From NCBI GenBank assembly GCA_964562405.1, contig CAZLTC010000009.1, positions 1 through 60,490 on the forward strand: a DNA stretch of 60,490 nucleotides, given 5' to 3'. The position numbers and the translations under genes were made by a program. Source of the stretch: an uncultured bacterium (GTDB taxonomy: Bacteria; Joyebacterota; Joyebacteria; Joyebacterales; Joyebacteraceae). Of this stretch, positions 9,587 through 57,143 are shown piece by piece. The notes under the pieces are model-generated. The model searched no databases, was not told the origin of the DNA, and worked only from the letters and a program-made list of their open reading frames with translations. Within the stretch, counting starts at the first letter, position 1, and each line of letters opens with the position of its first letter.

Positions 9587-9624
9587 CTAGACTCTCCGAC
9601 CCGCTGCCCAAGGGACAGCGAACC

Positions 9625-11082: not shown

Positions 11083-11097
11083 CGCTGTTCCTCCGTT

Positions 11098-25574: not shown

Positions 25575-26572
25575 TCGCGTGCCCTCCGCTCGAGCAGCTC
25601 GACGGCCGCGGCCAGGACCTCGTCGACGCCGACCTTCAGCATGCAGTCCCAGTGGCCGGACCGGCAGCGCCGCCCGCCGAAGAACGAGCATGCGCTGCAC
25701 TGAAGGCCCGCGTAGATGAGGGCGTGCCTCTCGAAATCGAACTGGGATGGATCGGTCGGGCCGAACACGGCGACCGTGGGAACGTCGAGCGCCATCGAGA
25801 TGTGAGTCAGGCCGCTGTCGTTTCCGACGAAGAGCGCAGCCCTGCTCACGAGGGCCGCCGCCGCTCCGAGGCTCAGGAGCCCCGCGGCGCTCCGGGCGCC
25901 CGACGCGTCGGCCACGCGCGAGCAGAGGTCTCTCTCGGCCGGCCCTCCGAGCGCGACGACGGGCAGGTCGAGATCACCGGTTAGCCGAGTGGACAGTGAC
26001 GCGAAGCGCTCCTCGGGCCACATCTTCGTGGCCCAGACGGAACCCGGCACGACGACCGCGAAGCCCCGCTCCGGAAGCCCGAGTTCGCCGATCACGGACG
26101 CGGCCGCGGCGGCCGCCCCGGACGGGAGGTGAAAGCGCGGGCGCGCGTACGGATGGGGAATACCGAGGGGCTCGAGGGCGTCCAGGTAGCGTTCCACCGT
26201 GCGCTTGCTCGCGCGGTACGGTCGCCGTAGCACTCTCACCAGCGCGCCGTCGAACCTGTCGCGCTTTGCGTAGCGAGAGACCACGGACGCTCCGGAGCGA
26301 CGCGACAGGTAGCGGCTCCGTGCGTTCGAGTGCAGATCGATGACGTGAGTGTATCCGGCCTCGCGTATCTCGAGTGCGAGACGGTTCAGACTCTTGAACG
26401 AGTCGTCGGGAAGCGTGTGCACGCGATCGAGGGCGGGGTTCCCCCCGACGAGTTCGCGGAAGCGCTCCTTGAGTGCGAAGCCGATCCCCGCATCGGGGTG
26501 GGCCGCCCTGACGGCGGCCACGACGGGCTCGGTAAGCACAACGTCGCCGATCGAGCTCATGCGGATGATCAG
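25571..26572 (-). CDS. Glycosyltransferase family 9 (heptosyltransferase type); start codon unresolved
   Basis: Motifs: NYLIIRMSSIGDVVLTEPVVAAVRAAHP...; FVGNDSGLTHISMALDVPTVAVFGPT; CSACSFFGGRRC. There is no ATG/GTG/TTG between the msbA stop (26604) and the conserved first strand. The 5' end is set provisionally at CTG 26572, which has GGAG 7 nt upstream. The first ATG is 26560. Confidence 0.7.
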   Translation of the reverse strand: MIIRMSSIGDVVLTEPVVAAVRAAHPDAGIGFALKERFRELVGGNPALDRVHTLPDDSFKSLNRLALEIREAGYTHVIDLHSNARSRYLSRRSGASVVSRYAKRDRFDGALVRVLRRPYRASKRTVERYLDALEPLGIPHPYARPRFHLPSGAAAAAASVIGELGLPERGFAVVVPGSVWATKMWPEERFASLSTRLTGDLDLPVVALGGPAERDLCSRVADASGARSAAGLLSLGAAAALVSRAALFVGNDSGLTHISMALDVPTVAVFGPTDPSQFDFERHALIYAGLQCSACSFFGGRRCRSGHWDCMLKVGVDEVLAAAVELLERRARE

Positions 26573-30002: not shown

Positions 30003-32309
30003 ATGTCGAACTCACGACGTGCGCCGACATCTCCCACGCGAGGGGCCACGGCCTTCGCGGTCGCGGTGGCCGGATACGCGGCTCTCTCCGCCCAGACGCT
30101 CCTTCTCCGGGAGCTGATGGTCGCCTGGCGGGGCAACGAGATGTCGTTCGGTCTCACGCTGGCCGTCTGGCTGCTGTCCACCGGCGCCGGGGGCGCGGCA
30201 TACGGGCTCGTCTCACGGCGCTTCCGGCCCGGTGCCCGGGAGCTTGCTCTTTGGCTGACCGCTCTCGGGCTTCTGGTCCCAGCCTCGCTGATGGCGGCCA
30301 GATTCGCCAGGCTGGCGCTCGGCGCTCCGGCCGGCGAGCTGGCGGGCGTGACCCGGCTGCTGTCGGCCGCCGCGATCTCGGTGATCCCGTTCGCTCTGGC
30401 GGGCGGATTCGTCTTCTCATGCTCCATCTTCGTGATGTCGGCCCGGGAGACAAGCGGCCCATCGGCCGTGGGGCGCGCATACGTGCTCGAGGCCCTGGGG
30501 GCGGTGGCCGCGGGAGTTCTCATGAGCTTCCTGCTGTTGCCGCGCATGAGCCCGACGGGCACCGCCTTCATCGCCACCGCCGCCTGCACGGGAGCCGCCG
30601 CTCTCCTGGCGGCGGGCGTCCGGGCGCGCGGCAGAGCGGTGGCGCTTCCCGTGGCCCTGAGTGTCGTTACGGCGCTCTTCGCTGCCGGAGCCGGGACCGC
30701 CGCGGGCCGACTCGACGACGTCACCGTCGCCGCGCAGTGGAAGACGCTCGGGTTCCGCTCGCAGGTGAACTCGGTGTACGGGCGCGTCGTCACGACCGAG
30801 GTCGGAACCCAGAAGAGCGTCTACGAGTCCGGAGTGCTCACGGCCTCTGCGCCGGACCGCATGGCGGCCGAGGAGGCAGTGCACGTCACCATGCTTCAGC
30901 ACCCCGCTCCCAAGCGGGTCCTCATGCTTGGCGGGTGCCTCGGGGGCGCCGTCGCGGAGGTCCTCAAGCACCCGAGCGTTGCGAGCGTCGACTGCGTGGA
31001 GTTGGACGCCGCCGCCGTGGCCGAGGCGCGCGCCCGCTTCGGAGGCGCCATGACCGCGGGGCTTGAGGACCCGCGCGTCACCCTTCACTACGGAGACCCA
31101 AGGTTCTTCGTCAAGAGATCCACGGATACGTACGATGTCGTCATCGTATCCGCTCCAGACCCGACCACAGCCAGGCTCAACAGGCTCTACACGCTGGAGT
31201 TCTTCGAGGAGCTCCATTCGGTCCTCGCGGGTGGAGGCGTGCTGGGACTCACGCTCTCTTCAGCGGACAACTACGTCAGCGAGGAACTCGCGGCGGTTCT
31301 CGCCTGCGAGAGGAATACCCTGTCGCGGGTGTTTGACAACGTGCTTCTGACGCCCGGCGACCCCTGTCACCTCCTCGCATCGCTGGCCGGGACTCCGCTT
31401 ACCAGGGACCCGGCAGAACTCGCAAGAAGAGTCTCGCTTCGCGGCCTCGACCTCGCCTACATTCGCGACTACTACATCGCCGACAGGTTCTCGCAGGAGC
31501 GGGCCGCCGAACTCGACGAGGCCCTGTCGCTGGCCACACCCGCGCTGAATACCGATCTCAGACCGAGCGGTTACTACCTGAGCCTCCTGGTCTGGGATCG
31601 CCAGCTCTCGGGCGAGCGTCGCGTCCTCGCGGGCGCCTCGCGGCACGTCACCCTGGGCAACGCCGCACTCGCCGCCATCGTCCTGGGGCTGGTCGGATTG
31701 CTCTCCCTCGCCCGCAGGGGATGCGACAGGCTGCGTGGTCCCGTCTTCCTGTCGGTTTTCGTGGTGGGACTCACCGAGATGAGCCTCGAGATCGCGTCGC
31801 TCATGACCTACCAGAGCCTCTACGGGTTCGTGTACGACCGCGTCGCGATGCTCGTGGCGGCCTTCATGGCGGGGCTGGCCGCCGGCGGCTGGCTGGGCAG
31901 AGGGGCGGTGCGGCGAGGAGCCGGGGTCCGCGCGTACGTTGGCGTGCAGGCGGCCATCATGTTGGTCCCGATCGGGCTCCTCAAGGCCGTGCAGCTGGTG
32001 TCGGCGCTCGGGACAGAGCGTCTCATGACCTGGTCGAACGCGTTCCCCGTGCTCGTCGTCGGAGCTGCGCTGCTGGCCGGAATCCAGTTCCCTCTCGCTG
32101 CCAGGCTCTGCATCGCGCCCGGGTCCGAGCCGGCCGCCACAGGCGGGCGGCTGTACGCGGCCGACCTCGCCGGCGCGGCGGTGGGCGCCCCGGCCGCGTC
32201 CATACTTCTCCTGCCGGTCCTGGGGCTGTCCGGGACCATGCTCGCACTCACCATCTTGAACGCGGGAGCGCTGGCGGCGCTCGCGATCCCGGCCTTCTTC
32301 GACCGCTGA
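30003..32309 (+). CDS. Polytopic membrane protein with a central spermidine-synthase-fold (SpeE-like) domain
   Basis: 768 aa. Multiple TM helices lie on both sides of a Rossmann methyltransferase-like core: VLMLGGCLGGAVAEVLKH, VDCVELDAAAV, DPRVTLHYGDPRFFV, YDVVIVSAPDPTTARLNRLYTLEFFEEL. These align motif by motif with SpeE. Confidence 0.8.
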   Translation: MSNSRRAPTSPTRGATAFAVAVAGYAALSAQTLLLRELMVAWRGNEMSFGLTLAVWLLSTGAGGAAYGLVSRRFRPGARELALWLTALGLLVPASLMAARFARLALGAPAGELAGVTRLLSAAAISVIPFALAGGFVFSCSIFVMSARETSGPSAVGRAYVLEALGAVAAGVLMSFLLLPRMSPTGTAFIATAACTGAAALLAAGVRARGRAVALPVALSVVTALFAAGAGTAAGRLDDVTVAAQWKTLGFRSQVNSVYGRVVTTEVGTQKSVYESGVLTASAPDRMAAEEAVHVTMLQHPAPKRVLMLGGCLGGAVAEVLKHPSVASVDCVELDAAAVAEARARFGGAMTAGLEDPRVTLHYGDPRFFVKRSTDTYDVVIVSAPDPTTARLNRLYTLEFFEELHSVLAGGGVLGLTLSSADNYVSEELAAVLACERNTLSRVFDNVLLTPGDPCHLLASLAGTPLTRDPAELARRVSLRGLDLAYIRDYYIADRFSQERAAELDEALSLATPALNTDLRPSGYYLSLLVWDRQLSGERRVLAGASRHVTLGNAALAAIVLGLVGLLSLARRGCDRLRGPVFLSVFVVGLTEMSLEIASLMTYQSLYGFVYDRVAMLVAAFMAGLAAGGWLGRGAVRRGAGVRAYVGVQAAIMLVPIGLLKAVQLVSALGTERLMTWSNAFPVLVVGAALLAGIQFPLAARLCIAPGSEPAATGGRLYAADLAGAAVGAPAASILLLPVLGLSGTMLALTILNAGALAALAIPAFFDR

Positions 32310-32379: not shown

Positions 32380-33381
32380 CTAGCGGAAGAGAGCCTTGAT
32401 CGTTCCCCAGCTGGCCTGCTGGACCGGTGCGACGCAGCTAGTGCAACCTCCGCCGTAGGCCCCGATGGGCGTTCCGCCCTCGCCGAGCGTGACGAGGTCC
32501 GACGCGTAGCACACGTGGTAGTCGTAGCCCGCCTGCCCGGTGAAATCACAGTAATAGGGCTCGACCGAGACGTTGCCGTCGACGCCCGTCATGTCACTCA
32601 TGCCCGAGTAGTTCTCCGGTGGATCGCTCTCCGCGTCGTTCCAGTAGAGGTTGCAGTAGCTGATGAGCGGCGACGAGAGGTACGACTTGATGCCGTTCTT
32701 GCCGTTGTGGGTGATGTTCGAGCTGGTCACCTCGACGGCGCCGTCAAAGACGTACACGCCGTTGTCGAAGTTGCTGACGATCGTCGTGTGATCGATGACC
32801 GCAGGCGTCTCGCCGTTGCCGTACACATAGATGCCGTGGTGATCGCCTCTGGCAATGACGACATTGCGCACGGTCGGTGCGGACGGACTCGAATCGCTTC
32901 TCACGACGATGCCGGTCGACCCGTTGCTGATCGTCACCTGATCGATGATCGGGCTGGCACCGTCCACACAGCCGATGCCCGCGATGAGATTGCGGCCGTC
33001 GCCGTCCTCGAGCGGCGCACCACCTCGCGACAGTCCTCCCCGGATCGTGAGCTTGCTGATGACGGTCTCGGCGCCCACGTTCACGCAGAGGATACCGTAT
33101 TCCGCGTCGCCCTGGTCGATCTTGACGTCCTTCCTGTCCCGTCCCAGAAGAGTCACGCCGTTCTTCACGCTGACGACCGCCGTCCTGTTACCCAGCGGGG
33201 TCACGTAGAGTCGCACGCTGTCGTAGACCCCGGCGCTCACCAGCACCGTGTCCCCGGCCGACGCGTGGTCCATGGCCTGATTGATCTCGCGTATGTTGAG
33301 ATCGATATCGGGAACATTGAAGGTGGTGGCCCATGCCGTGGCCGCGAGGCACAAGAAGAGGGCCATCAGGAGTACACGCAT
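32380..33381 (-). CDS. Secreted right-handed parallel beta-helix repeat protein
   Basis: MRVLLMALFLCLAATAWA/TTF is a signal peptide. Repeated ~22-residue beta-helix turns follow (ISKLTIRGG.., VTISNGSTGIVV, VVIARGDHHGIYVYG, TTIVSNFDNGVYVF, SSNITHNGKNGIKS). The C-terminus is Cys-rich and ends GGGCTSCVAPVQQASWGTIKALFR. AGGAGG SD. Confidence 0.75.
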   Translation of the reverse strand: MRVLLMALFLCLAATAWATTFNVPDIDLNIREINQAMDHASAGDTVLVSAGVYDSVRLYVTPLGNRTAVVSVKNGVTLLGRDRKDVKIDQGDAEYGILCVNVGAETVISKLTIRGGLSRGGAPLEDGDGRNLIAGIGCVDGASPIIDQVTISNGSTGIVVRSDSSPSAPTVRNVVIARGDHHGIYVYGNGETPAVIDHTTIVSNFDNGVYVFDGAVEVTSSNITHNGKNGIKSYLSSPLISYCNLYWNDAESDPPENYSGMSDMTGVDGNVSVEPYYCDFTGQAGYDYHVCYASDLVTLGEGGTPIGAYGGGCTSCVAPVQQASWGTIKALFR

Positions 33382-33538: not shown

Positions 33539-34696
33539 TCACTTCCAGACGCCGGATATCGGGGCCCCACACACCGCACACCGCCCGTCGGAGAGGCCCG
33601 TGATCTCTACCGAATAGCCGACTCTCTCTATGAGGGACGCACCGCACGACGGACAACGCGTGTCCGACGCGTCGTGCCCCGGCACGTTTCCGATATAGAC
33701 GTACCGCAGCCCGGCCGCATGAGCGATGTCCCTGGCGTGCTCCAGCGTCTCCACAGGCGTCGGCGGCAGGTCCGTGAGCTTGTACTGGGGGTGAAACCTC
33801 GAGAAGTGGAGCGGAACGTCGGGCCCCAGGTTCTCCACCATCCACTCGCACTGACGCCTGATCATCTCCGGGGAGTCGTTCCTTCCCGGGACTATGAGAG
33901 TAGTGACCTCCAGATGGACGCCCTCCTCGTGGAGTATGCGGAGGGAGCGCAGCACCGGTGCCAGCGACCCGCCCGACATGTCCCGGTAGTACTCCTCGCT
34001 CATGCCCTTGAGATCGAGATTGGCGGCGTCGAGGTACGGGCACAGCGCGCGGAGGGGCTTCTCGTTGATGAAGCCGTTCGAGTGGTAGACGTTCTTGAGA
34101 CCCTTCTCGTGCGCAAGCTTCGCGCAGTCGAGCATGTACTCATAGAAGATCGTCGGCTCCGAATACGTGTACGCGATGGACGGGGCCCCGCTCGCGAGCG
34201 CAGCGTCGACGAGTTCGGCAGGAGGCAGGTCGTAGTTGCGAAGTTCCTCGGGCCGAGCCTGCGAGATCTGCCAGTTCTGGCAGAACTTGCAATCGAGGTT
34301 GCAGCCCGCGGTCGCGATCGAGAACGCCGTGGTGCCCGGCATGAAGTGGTAGAACGGCTTCTTCTCTATGGGGTCGATGTGTATCGCGCATGGGTCGCCG
34401 TACGTGAGCGTGTAGTAGACGCCGTCCCTGTTCTCGCGCACGCCGCAGTGGCCGCGCTCACCGGGCGGCACGACGCACTCGCGAGGGCATAGGAGACAGC
34501 GCACCCAACCGTTGTCGAGCCGCTCCCAATAGCTTGCCTCCCGCGGTCTGACTCGGCCCACCTCCCCCGCTCCCGGTCCTCCGGACGCGATTCCGAGCGC
34601 GCCCAACATGGCGACCGCGGCCGCCGCGAGCACGAGCGTCGCGAGGACGGCGCGCCCGGCACGCGGGCCGCCGGCGCCTCTACTCTCCCTTCTCAC
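33539..34696 (-). CDS. AmmeMemoRadiSam system radical SAM enzyme with an N-terminal Arg-rich + hydrophobic signal/anchor segment
   Basis: Motifs: CNLDCKFCQNWQISQ (CX3CX2C), an upstream CLLCPRECVVPPGERGHCGV cluster, and a C-terminal CPSCG...CAVCG. Start set at GTG 34696, which has GGAGG 6 nt upstream. The alternative ATG 34735 (track) has only a weak SD. With either start the N-terminus is ..RRESRGAGGPRAGRAVLATLVLAAAAVAMLGALGIASG. Confidence 0.8.
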   Translation of the reverse strand: MRRESRGAGGPRAGRAVLATLVLAAAAVAMLGALGIASGGPGAGEVGRVRPREASYWERLDNGWVRCLLCPRECVVPPGERGHCGVRENRDGVYYTLTYGDPCAIHIDPIEKKPFYHFMPGTTAFSIATAGCNLDCKFCQNWQISQARPEELRNYDLPPAELVDAALASGAPSIAYTYSEPTIFYEYMLDCAKLAHEKGLKNVYHSNGFINEKPLRALCPYLDAANLDLKGMSEEYYRDMSGGSLAPVLRSLRILHEEGVHLEVTTLIVPGRNDSPEMIRRQCEWMVENLGPDVPLHFSRFHPQYKLTDLPPTPVETLEHARDIAHAAGLRYVYIGNVPGHDASDTRCPSCGASLIERVGYSVEITGLSDGRCAVCGAPISGVWK

Positions 34697-36272
34697 CGAA
34701 GACCTCCGCGCTGAATCTGAATATCGTGACGTCATCGCGCTTCCACGCGTCGGTCGGCAACCCCGCCTTCATGCAGGTGTGCTCGAGGAAGGTCTGCCGG
34801 TCCCATCCGTACTCCGTGGCCACCTGCGGAAGCAGCAACCCGCTGCGCGACCCGTCCTGCACGACAAGCCCGTCCCTTCCGACGACGATCTCGGAAACAT
34901 CATCGACTACCTTCAGTGGAGACATCACCGAGATCTCGATGTCGATGTCCGGGAGTTCCGATGCCTGCACGGGAGGGAACCGCGGATCGTGCTGCGACGC
35001 CTGGACGGCCATCTCTCGAACGGTGACGTAGAGCGGCTTGACCGCCACGACGTACCCGATGCACCCGCGCAGCCGCCCCCCCTCATGCAGCGTCACGAAC
35101 GCCCCGCACTTCTCCTCGAGCGCCGGCGTGCTGATGCCCACCTCCGGTGGTCGTTCGCCGGCCAGGTCCGCCTCTATCGCCCGGCGGGCGAGCACGAGCA
35201 GCGCCCGCTTCTCCTCTCCCGTGAGCCCGGCGTACGGCCGCACCTCCCCCGTGGCGCCGCCCGGCCTGCCGCTCCCCGCGGCCGGCGGGTCGTCCGCTTC
35301 TTTGTCCGATCCGCTCGCTCCACTCGACCGGCCTGACCCGGGCCGTGTCAGGACCGCCGACATGTAGCCGACGACGCCCGAACGGTCGCCCGTGACGTCG
35401 CCTGAGTTGGCATACTTGAGCACCTTCGCGTGCGATGCCCCCAACGAGCGCGCCGCCATCATCACCGTTGCCATGGGCCCTCCGCCGCACGCCTCGCACT
35501 CCCCTCCGGCCAGCGCGCGAAGCAGCCCCTCGGGGTCGAACGCCTCGACGTGTTCGAGGACGACCGAATCCAGCCCGACCGCCTCGTCGTAGCCGTGGAA
35601 GTGCGAGAGGTCCGAGCTTGCCACCAGCAGCACGCGGTCCGGATCGTTGGTGGCGCGCACGGCCGAAGCGATCGCCGACGCCAGCGTCCTCACCGTACCT
35701 TCGTCCTGCGAGCCCATGATTATGGGGACTATCCTGAACCGCCCGAGCGCTCGCTGGAGGAAGGGGACCTGTACCTCTAGCGAGTGTTCCGCGACGTGAG
35801 CGCGAGGTTCATAGACGAACGAACCCGACGCATCGCGAATCGCCGACGCGAGCGGCTCATCGACGTCGACCACACCCAGCGGCGTCTCGTACCCGTCCCC
35901 GCCGTAAACCGACGCCCCGCGGAAGCCGAACCTGTGCGACGGCGCCACGATGATGACCGTCTCGAAGTCCGCGCCGCGCAGCAGGGCGTATCCGTTGGCC
36001 GCGACCGCCCCCGAGTAGACGTATCCGGCGTGTGGCGAGATCAGCGCCACGATCCTGCCGTCGAGCTTGGCGACCGGGGCGGCGTCCAGGTAGCCGTCTA
36101 TGTCCGACGCGAGCGTAGCCGGGTCGCCCGGATAGAAGCTCCCGGCCACGGCCGGAGGTCTGATGTCGCGTCGCCCGTCTTCGTCCGTCGATCTCACGTT
36201 TTCGTCTCCTCCCTCGGAGGCGCAGCCCGGTGCGCCAAACACAAGTACCAGCATGACGAGCAGGAGTCGCAT
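34680..36272 (-). CDS. Fusion of AmmeMemoRadiSam protein B (Memo-like) and protein A (AMMECR1 domain) with a lipoprotein-type signal
   Basis: Trimmed to ATG 36272, which lies 11 nt after the nadB stop and has a GAGG SD. MRLLLVMLVLVFGAPGCASEG is the signal. Memo part: PPAVAGSFYPGDP, ISPHAGYVYSG, SSDLSHFH. A Gly/Ser/Pro linker follows. AMMECR1 part: CGAFVTLHEGGRLRGCIGY, HDPRFPPV, SGLLLPQVATEYGW. Confidence 0.8.
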   Translation of the reverse strand: MRLLLVMLVLVFGAPGCASEGGDENVRSTDEDGRRDIRPPAVAGSFYPGDPATLASDIDGYLDAAPVAKLDGRIVALISPHAGYVYSGAVAANGYALLRGADFETVIIVAPSHRFGFRGASVYGGDGYETPLGVVDVDEPLASAIRDASGSFVYEPRAHVAEHSLEVQVPFLQRALGRFRIVPIIMGSQDEGTVRTLASAIASAVRATNDPDRVLLVASSDLSHFHGYDEAVGLDSVVLEHVEAFDPEGLLRALAGGECEACGGGPMATVMMAARSLGASHAKVLKYANSGDVTGDRSGVVGYMSAVLTRPGSGRSSGASGSDKEADDPPAAGSGRPGGATGEVRPYAGLTGEEKRALLVLARRAIEADLAGERPPEVGISTPALEEKCGAFVTLHEGGRLRGCIGYVVAVKPLYVTVREMAVQASQHDPRFPPVQASELPDIDIEISVMSPLKVVDDVSEIVVGRDGLVVQDGSRSGLLLPQVATEYGWDRQTFLEHTCMKAGLPTDAWKRDDVTIFRFSAEVFGEKGE

Positions 36273-36283
36273 GGCCGCGCGCC

Positions 36284-37921
36284 TCACGTCGAGTGACCTC
36301 CCCGGGACGCGGCGGCCGTCCTGTTGCACGTATCGCTCCCCTGGATCACGGTGTCCTGCCCGAAGTTTATGTCGTCCCTCTCGGGGTAGTCTTCCACGAA
36401 GTGAAGGCCACGCGACTCCTTCCGCCTCATCGCGCTCCTGATGATCAACTCCCCCACCGTCGCGATGTTGCGGAGCTCAAGCTGGTCGCGGTTGAGCGGC
36501 TGTGTGCGGAAGTACTCGCAAACCTCCGCAAGAATAGGCCTGATGGTCTGAAGCGCTCGCTCGAGACGTTGCGAAGTACGGACGATGCCGACGTAGTCCC
36601 ACATCAACCTTCTAACTATGTCCCAGTTGTAGTCGATGAGGACACCCTCCGCGGGTTCCCCCGGCGCGTTGCCCGACCACTCAAGGGAGCCGCGGACGCG
36701 TGGCCGGGACGGCGAATCGGCCAGCTCCGCCACGGCGGACCTGGCGGCGCGCTGGCTGAAGACGACGGCCTCGAGAAGCGAGTTCGATGCCAGACGGTTC
36801 GCCCCATGCATTCCCGTATGTGCGACCTCTCCAACGGCATAGAGACCCGACACCTCCGTCCGGCAGTCGAGATCGACGGCGACCCCTCCGCAGAGGTAGT
36901 GCGCGGCCGGAACTACCGGTATGGGTTCGGTCGTCATGTCGATGCCGAGTTCCATCAGGCGGCCGTATATGTTCGGGAAGCGCCCTCGCACGCGGTCCGC
37001 CCCGACCGCCGTTACGTCGAGAACGACGTGCTTGTCACCCGACATCTTCATGCTCTTGTCGATCGCACGTGCGACGATGTCCCGGGGAGCCAGGTCTTCG
37101 AGAGGATGCACGCCCTTCATGATGCTCCGGCCGGATAGTTCGCGGAGAACGCCGCCTTCTCCCCTGACGGCCTCGGAGATCAGGAACGACTTGACCGCCG
37201 GATGATAGAGGCACGTGGGGTGAAACTGTATGAACTCCATGTTGCGAACCGAGGCACCCGATCGGTGCGCCATCGCAATGCCGTCTCCGCTTGCGATGTC
37301 CGGATTAGTCGTATAGAGATAGACCTTGCCGCATCCACCCGTCGCGAGGGCGGTGATCCTGGAGAGGATCGTCTCCACGCGGCCCAGGGTCGTGTCCAGC
37401 ACGTGGACGCCCACGCAGGTGGGGGCCCCGTCCGGCCCTTCGCTCACCACGAGGTCTATCGCGACGTGGTCCTCAAGCATCACGATGTTGGGGTTCGCGT
37501 CGACGGCCGAAAGCAGCGCGCGCTCTATCTCACGGCCGGTCATGTCAGACGCGTGGACGATGCGGCGCATGGAGTGGCCGCCCTCCCTCCCGAGCGCAAG
37601 GGCACCACCGTCCTCCGCGGTGGAGAACCTCGTGCCCCATTCCATCAGTCTCCTGATGGAATCGGGGCCGCTTCGAACCGCTAGCTCAACGGCCTCGCGT
37701 CTGCAGAGGCCGACTCCAGCCGTGAGAGTGTCCTCGATGTGACGCTCGAACGAGTCGGCCCCGGCGAGCACGGCCGCGATTCCGCCCTGCGCCATGTTCG
37801 TCGCGGACTCCACGTCCTCCTTCTTGGTGACCACGATGACCTTGCCGCTGTCCGCGGCCAGGAGAGCGAACGTCAGGCCCGCGATCCCGCTGCCGATTAC
37901 CGTGAATTCAGATGACTCCAT
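36284..37921 (-). CDS. nadB: L-aspartate oxidase
   Basis: Motifs: FTVIGSGIAGLTFAL (FAD GxGxxG), NMAQGGIAA, HPTCLY, FISEAVRGEGG, GGVAVD, LYAVGEVAHTGMHGANRLASNSLLE. Confidence 0.9.
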   Translation of the reverse strand: MESSEFTVIGSGIAGLTFALLAADSGKVIVVTKKEDVESATNMAQGGIAAVLAGADSFERHIEDTLTAGVGLCRREAVELAVRSGPDSIRRLMEWGTRFSTAEDGGALALGREGGHSMRRIVHASDMTGREIERALLSAVDANPNIVMLEDHVAIDLVVSEGPDGAPTCVGVHVLDTTLGRVETILSRITALATGGCGKVYLYTTNPDIASGDGIAMAHRSGASVRNMEFIQFHPTCLYHPAVKSFLISEAVRGEGGVLRELSGRSIMKGVHPLEDLAPRDIVARAIDKSMKMSGDKHVVLDVTAVGADRVRGRFPNIYGRLMELGIDMTTEPIPVVPAAHYLCGGVAVDLDCRTEVSGLYAVGEVAHTGMHGANRLASNSLLEAVVFSQRAARSAVAELADSPSRPRVRGSLEWSGNAPGEPAEGVLIDYNWDIVRRLMWDYVGIVRTSQRLERALQTIRPILAEVCEYFRTQPLNRDQLELRNIATVGELIIRSAMRRKESRGLHFVEDYPERDDINFGQDTVIQGSDTCNRTAAASRGGHST

Positions 37922-37933
37922 GGAGCGACCTTT

Positions 37934-38875
37934 CTACCGGGAAGATGTGGCCGAGAGTTCGAGCATGCGCTCGAGAGAGCGCGACGCGCCGGCAAGCGTC
38001 TCCTCGGGAACGTCCACGGTGAAGCGCTCGTGCTCCAGGGACCACGCCAGCCGAGGGAGATCGGTCATCTTCATGTTGCGGCAGACCGCGAACGCGGAGA
38101 GCGGGTAGTAGCGACCCTCCGGATGCTCTCGGTTCATCCTCTCCAGCAGCCCGATCTCCGTACCCACAATGAGCTCGTCGTGCTCGGCCGCGAGCTTCAT
38201 CATGCCGCCCGTGGAGGCGACGTGGTCCGCCATCGTAACGACGTCCGGGGGGCACTCAGGATGGACGACCACGGGGACGCCTGGATGCTCCGCTCTCGCG
38301 AGTTCGACATCCTCGGGCACGAACATGTTGTGGACGTAGCAGAAGCCGTCCCACGCGATGACCTCGGTGTCGACCTTCGTGGAGACGTACGCCGCGAGGT
38401 TGCGGTCCGGAACGAAGAGGACGCGGTCCGCACCCAGGGCCCTCACAATGTCGACCGCGTTCGAGGACGTGCAGCACACGTCGCTCCCCGCCTTGACCGC
38501 CGCCGTCGTGTTGACGTAGCAGACGACGGGAACTCCCGGATACCTTGCCTTGAACGACTCCAGCTCCGCCGCGTCGATCATGTCGGCCATCGGGCAGCCG
38601 GCCGACTCGGAAGGTATGATGACCTTCTTCCGAGGGTTCAGGATCTTCGCGCTCTCCGCCATGAAGCGGACGCCGCAGAGCACGATCAGAGAGGCGTCGG
38701 TCTCCGCGGCGAGCTGCGCGAGTCTCAGTGAGTCACCGAGGAAGTCCGAGACGCGCTGTACGGCATCGACCTGGTAGTTGTGACCGAGAATGACGGCGTC
38801 CTTCTCCCTCTTCAGCGCAACAATGCGCGCCGAGAGTTCGTCATCCGTCAGCCGGGCGTAGTCCTGAAGGTCCAT
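37934..38875 (-). CDS. nadA: Quinolinate synthase
   Basis: Motifs: DAVILGHNYQ, IVLCGVRFMAESAKIL, SESAGCPMAD, VVCYVNT, CCTSSNA, FCYVHN, VVVHPECP. A GGAGG SD 5 nt upstream lies inside the 3' end of lpxK (35-nt overlap). Confidence 0.9.
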   Translation of the reverse strand: MDLQDYARLTDDELSARIVALKREKDAVILGHNYQVDAVQRVSDFLGDSLRLAQLAAETDASLIVLCGVRFMAESAKILNPRKKVIIPSESAGCPMADMIDAAELESFKARYPGVPVVCYVNTTAAVKAGSDVCCTSSNAVDIVRALGADRVLFVPDRNLAAYVSTKVDTEVIAWDGFCYVHNMFVPEDVELARAEHPGVPVVVHPECPPDVVTMADHVASTGGMMKLAAEHDELIVGTEIGLLERMNREHPEGRYYPLSAFAVCRNMKMTDLPRLAWSLEHERFTVDVPEETLAGASRSLERMLELSATSSR

Positions 38876-40010
38876 TACTTCCTCCGCTGTACACCGCCGT
38901 CCGGAGCGCGCGCTCCAGAGACTCCTCTCCCTCCAGTACCTCGATCTCTATCCCGAGCGCCACCAGCGGCACCGTCGGCCGCCAGGCGGCAAGGCGGACC
39001 GCGTCCTTCTCGGTCGTCAGTATCAGCTCGGCGTTCGACTCACGGACCAGTTCGAGAATGTGAGCGTGATCGCGCTCCGTGAAGCGGTGATGGTCAGGGA
39101 ACGAGAGCGCGGCAACCACCTCCATTCCCAGCGCGTCCAGCGTCGACTCGAACTCCGACGGAGAGGCAATGCTCGAGAGAGCGAGACAGCGCCTTCCGCG
39201 GACCCGTGCCAGCTCGACCGTATCGCCGGCTCCCACGTCCCACAGCTCGGCCGGCCTCATTCGCGTGGCGACCAGCGCGGCACGCGGCGCAAGCGGTCCG
39301 AGCGTGGCTTCCACGCGTTCGGTGCCCGATCGGCCACACCTCGTCACCACGATCAGGTCCGCCCTGCCCACGCCCGTGGGGTTCTCCCTGAGGGTTCCGG
39401 CGGGCATGAGAAGACCGCTGCCCACGGGGCGCCTCGCGTCGACCGCCACAACGTCCAGGTCCCTCGCGAGACGAACGTGCTGAAACCCGTCGTCAACCAA
39501 TATAACACCGGCCCCGAGCTTGTCCACGGCGTACCTCGCGGCCCTGACCCGGTCGGCGCCCACGACGACGCTGACGCCTCTCGTAACCATCGCCGCGAGC
39601 ACTGGCTCGTCGCCCGCCTCCTCCCAACCCACAAGCGGGCGCTGCCCCTCGCTCACGACAACGACGCCGCGGGATAGGCGTCCGTATCCCCGGCTGACGA
39701 TCGCCACGGAAAGTCCGGACGACGAGAGCCGGCGCGCGAGGAAGATCGTGAGAGGTGTCTTGCCCGTCCCGCCGACGACCAGATTGCCGACGGATATCAC
39801 GGGGACGCCGAGTCTGACGGGCCGCCAAGCCCTGCACCACTGGACGAGCGCGCTCACGATGCCGTAGGGCACGGACAGCATCACAAGCAGCCCAAACACG
39901 GCGGTCGAGAGCGCTCCCGCGGGGCGACGACCGCCGGCGATGTCGCTCCACCAGCGGACGGCGCCGGGCGTCGTGCTGATCCTCGACCGTCCCCGCTCTC
40001 CTGCCATCAC
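38841..40010 (-). CDS. lpxK: Tetraacyldisaccharide 4'-kinase
   Basis: Motifs: VPVISVGNLVVGGTGKTPL (P-loop), VAIVSRGYG, GDEPVLAA, ILVDDGFQH. The start is GTG 40010 or ATG 40007, within GTGATG overlapping the waaA stop. Confidence 0.9.
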   Translation of the reverse strand: MMAGERGRSRISTTPGAVRWWSDIAGGRRPAGALSTAVFGLLVMLSVPYGIVSALVQWCRAWRPVRLGVPVISVGNLVVGGTGKTPLTIFLARRLSSSGLSVAIVSRGYGRLSRGVVVVSEGQRPLVGWEEAGDEPVLAAMVTRGVSVVVGADRVRAARYAVDKLGAGVILVDDGFQHVRLARDLDVVAVDARRPVGSGLLMPAGTLRENPTGVGRADLIVVTRCGRSGTERVEATLGPLAPRAALVATRMRPAELWDVGAGDTVELARVRGRRCLALSSIASPSEFESTLDALGMEVVAALSFPDHHRFTERDHAHILELVRESNAELILTTEKDAVRLAAWRPTVPLVALGIEIEVLEGEESLERALRTAVYSGGSNGPSGLRPADG

Positions 40011-41278
40011 GCCTCCGGGCGTCTTTCGCCGATGATCCCCGCCGACCGCATCAGCTCGACGATGCGCTCCGTCGCGCCCCGCCCGGACGACACCGCCAGA
40101 AGAGCCCGCCGGCTCATCGAAACACGGAGCGCCGGGTCATCGAGGATGCCGGACAGCGCATCGAGGAGCCCGGCACCGTCCGCCACCCTCACGGCGGCCC
40201 CACGCTCGAGCAGGAGCCGAGCGTCCTCTTCACAACTCGACGTGTGTGGACCGAGGACGACCGGAACGCCCACCGCCGCCGGCTCGAGCGGATTGTGACC
40301 TCCGTACGGGGCCAGCGTGCCTCCCACGAATGCGGCGTCCGCAGCGGCGTAGACACGGCCCAGCTCGCCGGTCGTGTCCAGCAGCGTCACGCGTGACTTC
40401 GGGCCTCCGACCGCGCCCTCGGAGCGTCTCGAGTAGGCGAGCCCGAGGGCGGACAGCCTGGCTGCGAGTGCGGGAGCGCGCCCAAGGTGTCTGGGGGCGA
40501 TCACCACGTGGCAGCCACGACCGAGCACGAGGTGTCGCGCCGCCAGTACGACCACCTCTTCCTCGGCAGGCCTCACGCTGCCGAAGACGACGACCGGCGT
40601 TCCCGCGCCTGCGCCGAGTTCCATCCTTACGGATGCTCTCTCGGAATCACCTGGGGCTTCCGAGAGGGTGTCGTACTTGAGGCTCCCCGCCACTGACAGC
40701 CGCTCCGATTCGAAGCCCAGCTCGAGGTACCGACGTACGTCCTCGTCCGAGCGGCAGGCGACGAATTCGACCGAATCAACCACCGCCCGAGTCGGGAATG
40801 CCACCGAGCGGTACCTCCTCACGCTCGATGCGGAGAGCCGCCCGTTCACGATGGCCACTCGCACGCCGCGCGCGGCCCCACGCACGATGAGGCTGGGCCA
40901 CAGCTCCGTCTCGACGATGAGAAGAGCCCGCGGTCTCACCGCGTCGAGCGCCCTATCCACGCATGAGGGAAGATCGAGCGGCGGGAATGCGACCGCTACC
41001 GCTTCCCCTTCGAGCCGCGCCGCGGCGGCCCGGCCCGTCGGCGTCATGACGGAGAGGAGGACACGTTCTCCCCGGTCGCGCAAAGCCGTGACGAGCGGAG
41101 CGGCCGCAGCCACCTCGCCCACCGAGGCAGCGTGCACCCAGATGCCGCCTGGACAGGCCGGCAGCTCTCCGGTCCTCTCCAGCCACTCGCGCCCGCCCGT
41201 ACGCCGTTTGAAGGCCAGCCACGGCCACGCCGCAGCCCAGGCGAACCTGGTGAGCCCTGTGTAGAGAGCGTAGGTCAA
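40007..41278 (-). CDS. waaA: 3-deoxy-D-manno-octulosonic acid (Kdo) transferase
   Basis: Motifs: IWVHAASVGEVAAAAPLV, IVETELWPSLI, VNGRLS, FVGGTLAPYGGHNPLEPA. TTG 41278 is the track start. Confidence 0.85.
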   Translation of the reverse strand: MTYALYTGLTRFAWAAAWPWLAFKRRTGGREWLERTGELPACPGGIWVHAASVGEVAAAAPLVTALRDRGERVLLSVMTPTGRAAAARLEGEAVAVAFPPLDLPSCVDRALDAVRPRALLIVETELWPSLIVRGAARGVRVAIVNGRLSASSVRRYRSVAFPTRAVVDSVEFVACRSDEDVRRYLELGFESERLSVAGSLKYDTLSEAPGDSERASVRMELGAGAGTPVVVFGSVRPAEEEVVVLAARHLVLGRGCHVVIAPRHLGRAPALAARLSALGLAYSRRSEGAVGGPKSRVTLLDTTGELGRVYAAADAAFVGGTLAPYGGHNPLEPAAVGVPVVLGPHTSSCEEDARLLLERGAAVRVADGAGLLDALSGILDDPALRVSMSRRALLAVSSGRGATERIVELMRSAGIIGERRPEA

Positions 41279-41284
41279 ACCGCA

Positions 41285-41980
41285 TCACTCCGTGTGCAAC
41301 GAGTCCTCGCGCTGGATCCCGGCCGACTCACCCAGCTCTCGAGCGCGCTCGCCGAGCGCCTCGAGGACCTCCGCCAGAGCGCCGGCCCTCTGCTCGACGG
41401 GAGCGCCGTCACCGGGCTCGATCGGGTCGCCGTGCGCCACCACGACCCTCGCGAACGGCAGCGGCACCGCGAACCCGTCCCAGCTGGACAGCCGCTTCGA
41501 GCGATCCGACCAGACTGCGACCGGCACTATGGGAGCGCCCGATCTGTCAGACAGGTAGAATATCCCCGGCTTCACGACTTGGGCCGGCCCTCTCGGACCA
41601 TCCGGCGTCACGGCCAGGTCATGCCCTTCCTTCACCTTCGAGAGCATGCCGACAAGACCTCGCGCGGAACCCCTGGTCGTCGACCCGCGCACGACCTCGT
41701 ACCCGAGGGCCGACATGACGCGCGCGCTGATCTCGCCGTCCCTGTGCCACGAGGAGAGAACGCAGATCCCGCTCCCTCTGTACGCGTACTCGAGACCAAG
41801 GAGCTGGCCGTGCCAGAAGGCGTGTATCACGCGCCTTCCGGCCGTGTGAAAGGCCTCTATCGCCGGGTAGCCATCGATGCGAAGCCGCCAGGTCGCCCCG
41901 AGGCCGCGCACGATGAGAGGACCGAGCGCGCCGGCCGCCGCCACCAGCGCGCGCTCTCTGGCGTCGAGCTTCGATCTCAC
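41285..41980 (-). CDS. DUF374 / LpxJ-type lysophospholipid-acyltransferase-like protein (candidate lipid A late acyltransferase)
   Basis: Trimmed to GTG 41980 (GTGA overlap with the lpxB stop). Motifs: VIHAFWHGQLLGLEYAY, LSSWHRDGEISARVMSALGYEVVRGSTTRGSARGL, LAVTPDGPRGP. These match the DUF374 pattern as I recall it. It sits between lpxB and waaA. Confidence 0.65.
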   Translation of the reverse strand: MRSKLDARERALVAAAGALGPLIVRGLGATWRLRIDGYPAIEAFHTAGRRVIHAFWHGQLLGLEYAYRGSGICVLSSWHRDGEISARVMSALGYEVVRGSTTRGSARGLVGMLSKVKEGHDLAVTPDGPRGPAQVVKPGIFYLSDRSGAPIVPVAVWSDRSKRLSSWDGFAVPLPFARVVVAHGDPIEPGDGAPVEQRAGALAEVLEALGERARELGESAGIQREDSLHTE

Positions 41981-43119
41981 CGCCCCTCCTCCGCCATCGA
42001 GAGCGCCATGCGTGCCACCCGCTCGCTCGCGCCCGGTTCTCCCAACGCGTTTCTCACGTCGATGAGTCTGCGAGAGGTTCGCGCCACGAGTTCGCCGTCC
42101 ACGAGGAACGGCCTGACGCGTGCCGCCAGAACCTGCGGGCGCGCGTCGCCCTGGATGACCTCGGGCACCACCTCCTCGCCCGCGATCACATTGACGAGGC
42201 CGATGTGCGGGATGCGGACCATGGACCTCGCGAGAGCGTACGACAGCGCCGAGGTGCGATACATTATCACCATCGGCGTTCCAGCACACGCCGCCTCGAG
42301 GGTCGCCGTGCCCGAGGCGACTATGAGCGCGGTAGCTCTCGACATCAGGCCGTGGACTCCGTCCGGCGGCACCAGGGTCACACCATCCATGTCGGCTCTT
42401 CCGATCGACGAGACCCACGCCGCGTCGACGCCGCGCGCCAAACCCACGCTCACGTGAAGTCCCGGGACGTCCCTGCGGAGCGATCGCGCCGCGCGAAGCA
42501 TGACGCTCAGGTGCCTCAGTATCTCCTGACGCCTGCTGCCCGGAAGGAGACCCAGCACCAAAGGGTCGCCCAGGCCGGTCCTGGGCCCCTCTATCCCCGC
42601 GACCCACGGCTCCTCCAGCAGCGGGTGCCCGACGAACTCGACGTCGACGCCGCGCCGCGCGTAGAAGTCCGCCTCGAAGGGGAGTATGACGGCCATACGG
42701 TCCACGCGTTCCGCGATCTTCCGAACGCGACCCTCCCCCCAGGCCCAGACCTGCGGGCTGATGTAGTAGAGCACGCGAATGCCCGCCGCACGCAGCCGAC
42801 GGGCAAGTATGAGATTGAAGCCGGGATAGTCTATGAGGACGGCGACGCGTGTCCCGCGCCGCGCGGCCTGGCGGACCAGCTCATCCATCGCACGCCTGAG
42901 CCTCGGCACGTGGCGGACGATCTCGACGAACCCGACCATCGAGAAGTCGTCCGACCTGAAGACCGGTTCGGCCCCGGCCGCGACCATGCGTTCGCCGGCC
43001 ACGCCGTAAACGCGCAGCTCGGGCGCGAGCTCCTGAAGGTGGCTCACCACCTTCGCTCCGTGAAGGTCTCCGGAGGTCTCCCCGGCGACCATCAGGATGC
43101 TCCCGTGCTCTGTGGCCAT
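41977..43119 (-). CDS. lpxB: Lipid-A-disaccharide synthase
   Basis: Motifs: ILMVAGETSGDLHGAKVV, VLIDYPGFNLILARRL, VLYYISPQVWAWGEGR, LLPGSRRQEI, ASGTATLEAACAGTPMVIMYR. GGGAGG SD. Confidence 0.9.
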   Translation of the reverse strand: MATEHGSILMVAGETSGDLHGAKVVSHLQELAPELRVYGVAGERMVAAGAEPVFRSDDFSMVGFVEIVRHVPRLRRAMDELVRQAARRGTRVAVLIDYPGFNLILARRLRAAGIRVLYYISPQVWAWGEGRVRKIAERVDRMAVILPFEADFYARRGVDVEFVGHPLLEEPWVAGIEGPRTGLGDPLVLGLLPGSRRQEILRHLSVMLRAARSLRRDVPGLHVSVGLARGVDAAWVSSIGRADMDGVTLVPPDGVHGLMSRATALIVASGTATLEAACAGTPMVIMYRTSALSYALARSMVRIPHIGLVNVIAGEEVVPEVIQGDARPQVLAARVRPFLVDGELVARTSRRLIDVRNALGEPGASERVARMALSMAEEGR

Positions 43120-43164
43120 GTCCCGCCTCCCGAAAGACGCGAGACGATCAGACGGGCCGGCGCA

Positions 43165-44148
43165 CTAGGCAGCGCGCCTCTGCTGCGCCGCGATCTGACC
43201 GAGGATCTCGAGAACGACCCTGAGAGCCTTGAGGCCGTCCTCACCCGAGACCACGGGTCTGGTCCCGCCGGTCACGGCCTCCACGAACGAAGCCAGCTCC
43301 AGCTTCAGCGGCTCCGTCGTATCCAGAGCCAGGTCCTCGTAGTCGACGACGTCAGACAACCCCCCCGGCATCTCGCCGGACGCCAGTCGGACGAGGAGCT
43401 CGGGCGACAGGTCCTTCTTCCTGAAGACCTGGGCCCTGGGGGCCATGCAATCGACGGTGATGTAGGCGTCCGGCTGGAAGAACCGAATCTTCCGAACCTT
43501 CTCCCGCGAGGCTCTGCTGGCAGTCACGTTGGCAATGCATCCGCTCTCGAAACCGATCCGCGCGTTCGCGATGTCGACCGACGGGGACAGTACGGGCACC
43601 CCCACGGCGCTGATGTTCGAGACTTCCGAATCGACGGTCGCCAGGATGAGATCTATGTCATGTATCATCAAGTCGAGCACGACCGCAACGTCGGTCCCGC
43701 GCGGCACGAACGTGGCCAGCCGGTGCGCCTCGATGAATCTCGGACCGGAGAGCACCTGAAGCGCCGCACGTATGGCGGGGTTGAACCTCTCGATGTGCCC
43801 CACCTGAACGACCAGTCCTCGGGCGCCAGCCGCTTCGACTATGTCGGTCGCCTCCTCCACCGTCGTGGCGATGGGCTTCTCTATCAGCACGTGCACACCC
43901 GCGTCGATGCACTCGCGCGCCACCGAGTGGTGGTCCGTGGTCGGCACGGCGACGCTCACGGCATCGACGGCCGCGAGAAGCGACCCGATGTCCGCGTACG
44001 CGGTACCCCCGTGCTCGGCCGCGGCCTTCTCCGCTCGCGCCGCGTCCGTGTCGAACACGCCGACGAGCCTGCAGTCCGGAAGCTCGGAGTAGACCCTCGC
44101 GTGGTGCTGACCGAGATGCCCGACGCCGACGACTCCCACCTTCAGCAA
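43165..44148 (-). CDS. Gfo/Idh/MocA family NAD(P)-dependent oxidoreductase
   Basis: Track ORF trimmed to TTG 44148, which has GGAGG 5 nt upstream. LKVGVVGVGHLGQHHARVY is the Rossmann motif. EKPIATTVEEA is the family EKP motif. It sits between lpxA and lpxB. Confidence 0.75.
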   Translation of the reverse strand: MLKVGVVGVGHLGQHHARVYSELPDCRLVGVFDTDAARAEKAAAEHGGTAYADIGSLLAAVDAVSVAVPTTDHHSVARECIDAGVHVLIEKPIATTVEEATDIVEAAGARGLVVQVGHIERFNPAIRAALQVLSGPRFIEAHRLATFVPRGTDVAVVLDLMIHDIDLILATVDSEVSNISAVGVPVLSPSVDIANARIGFESGCIANVTASRASREKVRKIRFFQPDAYITVDCMAPRAQVFRKKDLSPELLVRLASGEMPGGLSDVVDYEDLALDTTEPLKLELASFVEAVTGGTRPVVSGEDGLKALRVVLEILGQIAAQQRRAA

Positions 44149-44237
44149 ACCGACCTCCAGGTATGAGGATGCGGGGCCATGGAACGCGTTTCCGCGCTGG
44201 GAACCGCGTTCCACGTCCGAGAGGAGCGCCACTGCGA

Positions 44238-45011: not shown

Positions 45012-45023
45012 CGGGTTCTCCGC

Positions 45024-57112: not shown

Positions 57113-57143
57113 GCTGGTCCCCCCGTGCTTCACGGCTGGAACG

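Follow-up and report, generated by a model that had tools for sequence, protein, structure and literature searches.

A probably exported AmmeMemoRadiSam pair, a Memo-AMMECR1 fusion and a radical SAM enzyme, beside lipid A and NAD genes of an uncultured Joyebacterota bacterium

We analysed a DNA stretch of 60,490 nucleotides from an uncultured bacterium of the Joyebacteraceae (assembly GCA_964562405.1, contig CAZLTC010000009.1, positions 1 to 60,490), referred to below as the window. Two overlapping genes on its minus strand encode the three families of the AmmeMemoRadiSam system: a fusion of the Memo (protein B) and AMMECR1 (protein A) domains, which we call the B-A fusion, and the matching radical S-adenosylmethionine (SAM) enzyme. 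Both proteins begin with signal-like segments that recur throughout a large group of homologues. Judging from the sequences and their genomic contexts, we consider it probable that the pair, with a radical SAM enzyme that resembles pyruvate formate-lyase activating enzyme (PFL-AE), belongs to an exported subtype of the system and works at the periplasmic face of the inner membrane. We are more confident of an extracytoplasmic placement for the clade in general than for the window. The two genes comprise the following features:

34680 to 36272, minus strand: AmmeMemoRadiSam protein B-A fusion, a predicted exported precursor of lipoprotein type (530 aa from ATG; TIGR04336, TIGR04335, PF01875, PF01871)
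36222 to 36272, minus strand: predicted signal peptide of the B-A fusion, MRLLLVMLVLVFGAPG, ending at Cys17 in a lipobox-like APGC, as read from the sequence
35352 to 36161, minus strand: Memo/protein B domain, residues 38-307 of the B-A fusion
34698 to 35204, minus strand: AMMECR1/protein A domain, residues 357-525, with RGCIG and DPRF motifs
33539 to 34696, minus strand: AmmeMemoRadiSam radical SAM enzyme (385 aa from GTG 34696, or 398 aa from the alternative ATG 34735; TIGR04337)
34535 to 34696, minus strand: N-terminal extension of the radical SAM enzyme, residues 1-54, with an Arg-rich N-terminal (n-) region and a hydrophobic helix followed by a conserved G-[IL]-A-S-G-G
34703 to 34707, minus strand: GGAGG Shine-Dalgarno-like element, 6 nt upstream of GTG 34696 and within the end of the B-A gene, suggestive of translational coupling

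The B-A fusion matches the Memo/protein B model TIGR04336 with 285.4 bits (cut-off 26) and PF01875 with 217.6 bits. Its second domain matches the AMMECR1/protein A model TIGR04335 with 189 bits (cut-off 99) as well as PF01871, and a Gly/Ser/Pro linker joins the two. The AMMECR1 motifs RGChG and DxRa, as defined in PMC2034487, are present as LRGCIGY and HDPRFPP. Relatives in the PDB are PH0010 (1vaj, 2e-39) and MEMO1 (3bcz/7kq8, ~3e-16). The fusion itself is not new; it has been known from comparative genomics since 2007 (PMC2034487), and the JGI annotation names it so. The protein starts with MRLLLVMLVLVFGAPGC, followed by ASEGGDE. Most close homologues of the fusion bear a signal. In the majority of about 95 that we examined with an N-terminal signal region, a Cys comes after the hydrophobic region, usually with [AG][ASD]EGGD behind it. 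The public gene call places the start at GTG 36329 (549 aa). We rejected this start because the homologues begin just before the hydrophobic (h-) region; it entails a 46-nt overlap with nadB and a non-conserved Arg-rich leader.

The second gene matches TIGR04337 with 392.1 bits (cut-off 220) over residues 68-397 of the 398-aa form and carries the CX3CX2C motif as CNLDCKFCQNW. Its overlap with the B-A gene is 56 nt from ATG 34735 and 17 nt from GTG 34696, the start chosen by the public gene call (385 aa). The conserved core begins at residue 55 of the 385-aa form, leaving an extension of 54-67 aa depending on the start. This extension consists of an Arg-rich segment and then about 22 Ala/Leu/Val residues. 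In the AlphaFold 2 (AF2) model of the enzyme (pLDDT 92.3) the extension is modelled as a helix with a pLDDT of ~74-89, the hydrophobic helix spanning residues 13-37 (nt 34586-34660). Positive charge sits N-terminal of the helix, which predicts an N-in/C-out topology. A preliminary description of this DNA had recognised a Memo-AMMECR1 fusion with an N-terminus like that of a lipoprotein and a matching radical SAM gene that overlaps it by 17-56 nt and opens with the Arg-rich and Ala/Leu/Val-rich segments. These readings stand, with the A, B and radical SAM models all scoring above their cut-offs. The closest solved fold of the enzyme is PFL-AE (3cb8; Foldseek E 7e-13, TMt 0.80; phmmer 7e-8). Across 54 homologues three groups of Cys residues are invariant: C67/C70/C74/C84, the SAM cluster C132/C136/C139, and C348/C351/C373/C376. 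The enzyme is therefore likely to bind more than a single metal cluster, three Fe-S clusters being predicted.

Homologues were gathered in two ways. The locus set comprises 155 non-redundant loci from GTDB species representatives, mostly metagenome-assembled genomes, with the longest possible open reading frame (ORF) used at each locus. The breadth of the radical SAM family was surveyed by a HMMER scan of 1.84 billion cluster representatives, which returned 1861 proteins at E<=1e-30. Signals and topology were called throughout with our own hydropathy, charge and regular-expression heuristics. Among the 120 best homologues of the radical SAM enzyme (56-87% identity), an equivalent N-terminal extension is found in 114 of the 114 full-length proteins. 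A signal-like extension is present at 130 of the 155 loci: 63 have a twin-arginine pair (RR) in the form RR-x-phi-phi, 23 have KR or RK, and 44 are hydrophobic only. The 25 loci without an extension are nearly all from DPANN or Methanosarcinales archaea. The pattern [RK]R-x-F-[LIVMF] occurs in 57 of the 155, many of them with textbook motifs of the twin-arginine translocation (Tat) pathway (SRREFLK, SRRSFLK, TRRDFLK), and homologues at 50-60% identity have canonical Tat motifs at the same position. The sequences of the extensions differ; their n-region/h-region architecture is conserved and is common to AT-rich and GC-rich genomes of >10 phyla. In cytosolic members of the family the protein starts with the core itself (MKEAL...), and the reading frame is not open further upstream. 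The best 150 of the 1861 representatives (50%-identity clusters) divide into 88 without an N-terminal extension (cytosolic type), 26 that are Tat-like, 7 with a hydrophobic N-terminus without RR, 13 with a long N-terminal region (>110 aa), 2 with a domain N-terminal of the radical SAM domain, 8 others and 6 with a truncated or partial core.

The signals of the partner protein are similarly conserved. Sixty-five B-A fusions lie within 6 kb of a signal-bearing radical SAM gene, and 63 of them have a signal peptide, while 2 could not be judged; only some of these signals are lipoprotein-like, and the rest resemble substrates of signal peptidase I (SPase I). With one architecture repeated at about 130 loci, the signals of the pair exceed what chance would produce. 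One locus with a signal-less B-A fusion (P0199, L081) has no radical SAM partner adjacent and is uninformative. At six loci (L015, L017, L022, L034, L042 and L072, from Desulfobacterota and Spirochaete hosts) a second radical SAM protein of ~350 aa, with CxLCPRxCGVNR and a weak match to TIGR04337, adjoins the radical SAM enzyme with the Tat signal; an example is L017 6123-7175.

Domain fusions occur among these representatives, the source of the proteins being metagenomic gene calls. A Pfam scan of 10 of the radical SAM forms with long or hydrophobic N-termini found identifiable extra domains in 8. The fusion architectures are:

P0258 and P0259: one N-terminal transmembrane (TM) helix, an FMN_bind domain with the DxVSGAT flavinylation motif and the radical SAM domain, with no TM helix between the two domains
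P0248 and P0254: FMN_bind, Fer4_5 (NapH/NosR-like) and radical SAM
P0250: DsbD_2, FMN_bind, Fer4_5 and radical SAM
P0243 and P0256: DsbD_2 and radical SAM
P0266: signal, CBM_11 and radical SAM
P0242: signal, beta-propeller and radical SAM
P0271: signal, Memo, AMMECR1 and radical SAM

In NapH-like proteins the FMN_bind domain is extracytosolic, and its flavin is attached by ApbE (Meheust et al. 2021, PMC8238504). Because the radical SAM domain is fused to such a domain without a membrane crossing, it is predicted to lie on the same side of the membrane. More than any other single observation, these FMN_bind fusions argue for a location of the clade's catalytic domain outside the cytoplasm. The survey also contains signal-less triple fusions of 900-1150 aa in the order radical SAM, AMMECR1, Memo, the reverse of the bacterial order B-A-radical SAM seen in P0271; they may be eukaryotic (P0300, P0304, P0315, P0316, P0318, P0328, P0344, P0346, P0350, P0359, P0374).

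Unbiased clustering of the ORFs flanking the radical SAM loci, with a neighbour defined as a gene within 6 kb of the radical SAM gene, shows that the most frequent neighbour after the B-A gene is a membrane protein of 700-830 aa. Its homologue in the window, which the preliminary description had passed over, is a further feature of the locus:

30003 to 32309, plus strand: conserved partner, a 14-TM protein of 768 aa with an aminopropyltransferase-fold (SpeE-like) domain, convergent with the module (PF01564)

The gene for this SpeE-like protein is found near 49 of the 130 signal-bearing and 1 of the 25 signal-less radical SAM genes (Fisher p=7e-4), and a 222-aa DsbD_2/CcdA-like protein follows the radical SAM gene at 47 of the 130 and at none of the 25 (0/25; p=7e-5); both p-values ignore the shared ancestry of phylogenetically non-independent loci, and are optimistic and only indicative. 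In L009, L043, L047, L050, L053, L076 and L077, among others, the SpeE-like and radical SAM genes lie on the same strand with a gap of 1-7 nt or a short overlap, and one representative (P0324) is a direct fusion of the two proteins.

The AF2 model of the SpeE-like partner (pLDDT 93.4, pTM 0.92) consists of seven TM helices, a soluble domain from residue 251 to ~546 and then 6-7 TM helices. In the soluble domain the aminopropyltransferase fold is complete (Thermus SpeE 1uir; E 9e-14, TMt 0.75, 28% identity). With helix boundaries taken from this model, we compared the Lys/Arg content of the loops across 59 homologues. The loops predicted to be cytoplasmic average 1.2, 1.7, 0.8, 1.6, 2.7, 1.2, 1.0 and 0.6, and those predicted to be periplasmic 0.3, 0.1, 0.0, 0.4, 0.2 and 0.0. 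The alternation in the short loops is perfect, at ~10:1, and since the soluble domain is on the Lys/Arg-poor side it is predicted to face the periplasm. The protein P0486 agrees with this placement: it has eight TM segments between its SpeE-like and FMN_bind domains, if the last long helix is read as a hairpin. The window protein scores below all NCBIfam aminopropyltransferase cut-offs (NF002956 161/472, TIGR00417 91.5/249.55, NF037959 36.1/40). The Asp of the GGGDG motif of SpeE selects decarboxylated SAM (dcSAM) over SAM. The family consensus GGGxGG, which is LGGCLGG in the window, is without this Asp, and the ligand of the domain may therefore be SAM. Public sources name the homologues 'spermidine synthase' or, as in the model NF037959, 'fused MFS/spermidine synthase'. 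The convergent gene of the window is probably a component of the AmmeMemoRadiSam system, not a polyamine enzyme.

Other recurrent neighbours differ with the type of signal. The DsbD_2 association is seen at 40 of 67 loci with a non-RR signal vs 7 of 63 with RR, and in Omnitrophota the loss of RR is accompanied by a DsbD_2 partner; the window has no such partner. A Tat-signal DUF362 protein precedes the radical SAM gene at 14 of the 130 signal-bearing loci and at none of the 25 signal-less ones (0/25), and all 14 have RR signals. In L159 the order is ApbE, radical SAM, B-A lipoprotein and a single protein in which the SpeE-like, FMN_bind and Fer4_5 domains are fused.

The remaining neighbours of the pair in the window are the following:

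36284 to 47368, minus strand: upstream co-directional genes lpxD, lpxC-fabZ, lpxA, GFO, lpxB, DUF374, kdtA, lpxK, nadA and nadB, a lineage-specific synteny
32380 to 33381, minus strand: signal-bearing right-handed beta-helix protein (PF13229), directly downstream of the radical SAM gene, a lineage-specific neighbour

Pfam identifies a minus-strand string of tamB, bamA, lpxD, lpxC-fabZ, lpxA, a GFO oxidoreductase, lpxB, DUF374, kdtA, lpxK, nadA and nadB, and an OmpH/Skp-like ORF can be recognised by eye at 47407-47946. The pair closes this string, as had been described. The stop codon of nadB lies at 36284-36286 and the ATG of the B-A gene 11 nt further on. A terminator scan, which is weak evidence, shows no terminator-like site after nadB, the B-A gene or the module. 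The order kdtA, lpxK, nadA, nadB, B-A, radical SAM, beta-helix, SpeE-like (convergent), GT9, msbA is shared by five related, Eisenbacteria-like species representatives (L001, L002, L003, L111, L135). Beyond this lineage the linkage to lpx and nad genes is found in two partial cases among the 155 loci: in L032, from Omnitrophota, the radical SAM gene is directly preceded by bamA, lpxD, lpxC-fabZ and lpxA, and in L011 nadA lies near it. A further Eisenbacteria locus, L075, is of the Tat/DUF362 form and lacks lpx genes. The linkage is the synteny of one Eisenbacteria-like lineage, not a trait of the family. The connection of the pair to lipid A and NAD genes, on which the preliminary description had drawn, is only weakly supported: it holds for the five related representatives and in part for L032 and L011. 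The beta-helix gene keeps its position in the same five representatives, with a C-terminal tail ...SWGTIKALFR, and a promoter-like site at 33486-33458 (weak evidence) may give it a promoter of its own. In the unrelated locus L159 a beta-helix protein (9308-11221) also stands just after the module.

The 60-kb window as a whole is a supercluster for the envelope and lipopolysaccharide (LPS), with LolCDE-like, TamB and BamA genes, lipid A genes, five GT9, MsbA, two Wzy_C, GT4 and Wza-like genes; it also carries nadAB and mcsB-clpC. The block at 1109-29846 includes five GT9 heptosyltransferase-like proteins, MsbA, two Wzy_C/O-antigen-ligase-like proteins, several GT4, Bac_transf, a Wza-like exporter, PMT_2, UDP-glucose dehydrogenase and a heparinase II/III-like protein (2470-4794). 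Within this polysaccharide/LPS cluster an ORF of 318 aa (16388-17344, minus strand) has a partial match to deoxyhypusine synthase (PF01916), a polyamine-related fold, and adjoins a DUF3108 protein (17371-18435). The G+C content is 69-71% at 18001-26000, a region that spans Wzy_C, GT4 and GT9 genes, vs 61-67% over most of the window. Directly upstream of tamB-bamA (54653-58514, minus strand) lie a ClpC-type AAA+ ATPase and McsB, an arginine-kinase-like ATP:guanido phosphotransferase, an unusual location for a pair devoted to protein quality control. The longest ORF of DUF374 overlaps lpxB by >600 nt (41285-42607 and 41977-43119, minus strand), so its true start must be internal, near 42130; the DUF374 domain occupies only residues 275-342 of the long ORF.

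Taken together, these features suggest the following scheme. The B-A fusion would leave the cytoplasm by the general secretory (Sec) route and would probably be anchored by a lipid at Cys17. The catalytic domain of the radical SAM enzyme would also be placed outside, its N-terminal helix being either a cleaved signal or an N-in/C-out anchor. In most relatives its route would be Tat, which may be the ancestral one. This route would fit the enzyme because the protein must fold around its Fe-S clusters before export; with more than one metal cluster, maturation after export is hard to picture and Tat would be the expected route. Outside, the pair would act with the 14-TM protein, which would hold its SAM- or dcSAM-type domain in the periplasm and might, speculatively, supply or position SAM. 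In other lineages electrons would cross the membrane through fused or adjacent modules, either NapH-like Fer4_5 with flavinylated FMN_bind or DsbD_2/CcdA-like. The membrane- or periplasm-facing role put forward in the preliminary description agrees with the membership of both proteins in a large clade in which export signals are a consistent feature, and it is the best reading of them.

Several observations weigh against this placement. The motif S/T-R-R-x-F-L-K is missing at the n-region/h-region boundary of the window radical SAM enzyme, which reads PRAGRAVLATL; this absence had also gone unremarked. The only RR pair is 11 residues upstream of the helix, and where the window has GRAVLATL the nearest relative, L001, has GRRAVLLATL. 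By a strict pattern, applied to the close clade only, 62 of the 76 closest homologues have no RR beside the helix; this pattern misses canonical motifs such as RRSFLK. The hydrophobicity of the h-region in the window is that of a Sec signal or a TM anchor. Pfam TAT_signal (PF10518) matches neither the window enzyme nor L001, and on eight Tat-looking relatives it gives only sub-threshold scores, those of L008, L037 and L052 being 11-18 bits vs 22.7, in the right place; since it stays below its cut-off even where the motif is canonical, this model does not discriminate. To our knowledge Fe-S proteins do not mature after Sec export, and we know of no SAM pool or SAM exporter in the periplasm. At the B-A signal, comparison with the lipobox [LVI][ASTVI][GAS]C shows a fitting Gly at -1 and an atypical Pro at -2, and an alternative SPase I site (GCA|S) is possible; lipidation of Cys17 is still the likely prediction, with some doubt from the Pro. 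The radical SAM protein of L159 (2049-3029) has no extension even in its longest frame, yet the B-A fusion beside it is, by its signal, a predicted exported lipoprotein, so this locus does not fit a simple picture with all parts in the periplasm. In L039 (162-755) and L046 (7-1141) separate signal-less Memo and AMMECR1 genes stand beside a radical SAM gene with a Tat signal. Tat hitch-hiking could co-export the signal-less A and B proteins at these two loci. In the window lineage the route of the radical SAM enzyme could be Tat with a degenerate motif, a signal anchor that uses the signal recognition particle and Sec, or something else.

A separate question is the target. We propose, speculatively, that in this organism it is an envelope lipid or an LPS component, because the module sits inside a supercluster for LPS biogenesis; for this lineage only, the link to LPS is suggestive. 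The chances are only slightly below even that the system is exported while its location among lipid A and NAD genes is incidental, and that, with no connection to LPS, it serves a protein or cofactor substrate in some general maturation or redox task of the periplasm. The restriction of the lpx/nad linkage to five related representatives and the partial cases L032 and L011 would be expected in that case, and the presence of nadA and nadB in the string shows that the cluster mixes unrelated functions. Moreover, the enzyme with the closest solved fold, PFL-AE, acts on a protein, and the neighbours in other phyla are redox modules, not LPS genes. Set against this are the LPS genes on both sides of the module (kdtA and lpxK upstream; GT9, msbA, more GT9 and Wzy_C downstream), the independent Omnitrophota locus with lpxA directly upstream of the radical SAM gene, and the conserved partner, since a polytopic membrane protein would be well suited to a substrate linked to lipid.

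We regard it as unlikely that the helix merely anchors a cytoplasm-facing radical SAM domain to the inner membrane, with the B-A fusion, or only its product, on the other side. Such an arrangement, which the preliminary description had taken as the conservative reading, would account for the lack of RR in the window enzyme and most of its closest homologues, for the very hydrophobic helix of 22-25 residues, and for the signal-less enzyme of L159 beside an exported B-A fusion; SAM and low-potential reductants are cytoplasmic. It is disfavoured by the charges on the N-terminal side of the helix, which predict N-in/C-out, and by the canonical Tat motifs at the same position in homologues at 50-60% identity. 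In addition, radical SAM domains occur behind extracytosolic FMN_bind, CBM and beta-propeller domains without an intervening TM helix, and the B-A partner keeps its signal in the same genomes. That the extensions are artefacts of over-long ORFs, the true starts being internal (e.g. GTG at V62 of the 398-aa form) and the proteins ordinary cytoplasmic enzymes, is very improbable: a GGAGG-like element can be seen by eye before an internal GTG just ahead of the conserved core, and high-GC DNA gives long Ala/Leu/Val-rich open frames, but the same layout recurs in AT-rich and GC-rich genomes of more than ten phyla, often with SRRxFLK, the cytosolic members start at the core with no open frame ahead of it, and AF2 models the extension as a helix.

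Placement of the pair at the periplasmic face of the inner membrane is thus the reading that we prefer. A wider proposal, that the whole branch of the family is an extracytoplasmic radical SAM pathway with Tat-ancestral export, reduction by NapH-like or DsbD_2 modules, SAM or dcSAM provided via the 14-TM protein and a lipid A- or LPS-related target in the window lineage, is tentative, and we think it rather doubtful in this complete form.

The three-family system and the B-A fusion were already known, and the exported subtype is apparently undescribed, as had been supposed. In the searchable literature we found no description of the exported subtype, of radical SAM enzymes of this family with Tat signals, or of a link to SpeE-like, NapH-like or DsbD_2 proteins. 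A comparative study of Memo contexts by Burroughs et al. in 2019 (Journal of Biological Chemistry), whose abstract reportedly concerns the modification of nucleotide bases and isoprenoids, may mention signals or the SpeE-like neighbour. Radical SAM enzymes are treated as strictly cytoplasmic, because they depend on SAM, on a reductant of low potential and on Fe-S clusters that are sensitive to oxygen. If our reading is true, a broad clade with Tat or Sec signals, periplasmic flavin fusions and transmembrane electron modules would overturn this assumption, and would imply a route into the periplasm for SAM or for a SAM-loaded enzyme. The wider proposal, if true, would amount to the first demonstrated case of radical SAM chemistry beyond the cytoplasm, and would place in a concrete biochemical setting, for the first time, the Memo and AMMECR1 families, whose human members MEMO1 and AMMECR1 are conserved, disease-linked and without a settled biochemical function. 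The exported subtype gives these families new partners, namely the SpeE-like membrane protein, NapH-like/FMN_bind, DsbD_2 and DUF362, and its confinement to one compartment would make the hunt for a substrate more tractable. For genome annotation, the label 'spermidine synthase' on the convergent gene is probably misleading.

Among known systems, PFL-AE (3cb8, 3c8f, 8fo0) is the closest in structure to the window radical SAM enzyme and has the same CX3CX2C partial TIM barrel. The likeness is in fold only: the window enzyme is far below the equivalog cut-offs (TIGR02493 48.8/231.75, TIGR02494 48.2/174.35) and differs by an N-terminal and a C-terminal four-Cys motif, both additional and invariant, and by its N-terminal signal or anchor. 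Among the window ORFs scanned with Pfam no match to the PFL-like or Gly_radical families was found, and no glycyl-radical enzyme gene lies beside the radical SAM gene. The partner at 30003-32309 has the complete fold of SpeE (1uir, 3anx, 3o4f), but here it sits between two bundles of 7 TM helices, on what is predicted to be the periplasmic side, and the Asp of GGGDG is not conserved. Fe-S proteins exported by Tat include the small subunits of hydrogenases and Rieske proteins whose Tat signal anchors stay uncleaved. Relatives of the window radical SAM enzyme likewise pair an S/T-R-R-x-F-L-K signal with a cofactor that would be inserted before export, whereas the window copy has lost the RR pair; we know of no radical SAM enzyme that is a Tat substrate. 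The ApbE-flavinylated NapH-like and DsbD-type systems for extracytosolic electron transfer (PMC8238504) are related through the radical SAM and SpeE-like homologues that are fused to FMN_bind, Fer4_5 and DsbD_2; the window has none of the NapH-like, FMN_bind and DsbD_2 modules, and radical SAM, Memo, AMMECR1 and spermidine synthase are unmentioned in the main text of that paper. The window pair agrees with the AmmeMemoRadiSam system (TIGR04335/TIGR04336/TIGR04337) in that all three models are matched, the genes are adjacent and overlapping, and B and A are fused. The best-studied members of this system, archaeal PH0010 and eukaryotic MEMO1 and AMMECR1, are without signals, whereas the window components and a large bacterial clade bear them, and this clade differs from the classical system in having partners of its own: the 14-TM SpeE-like protein, DsbD_2, NapH-like/FMN_bind and Tat-DUF362.

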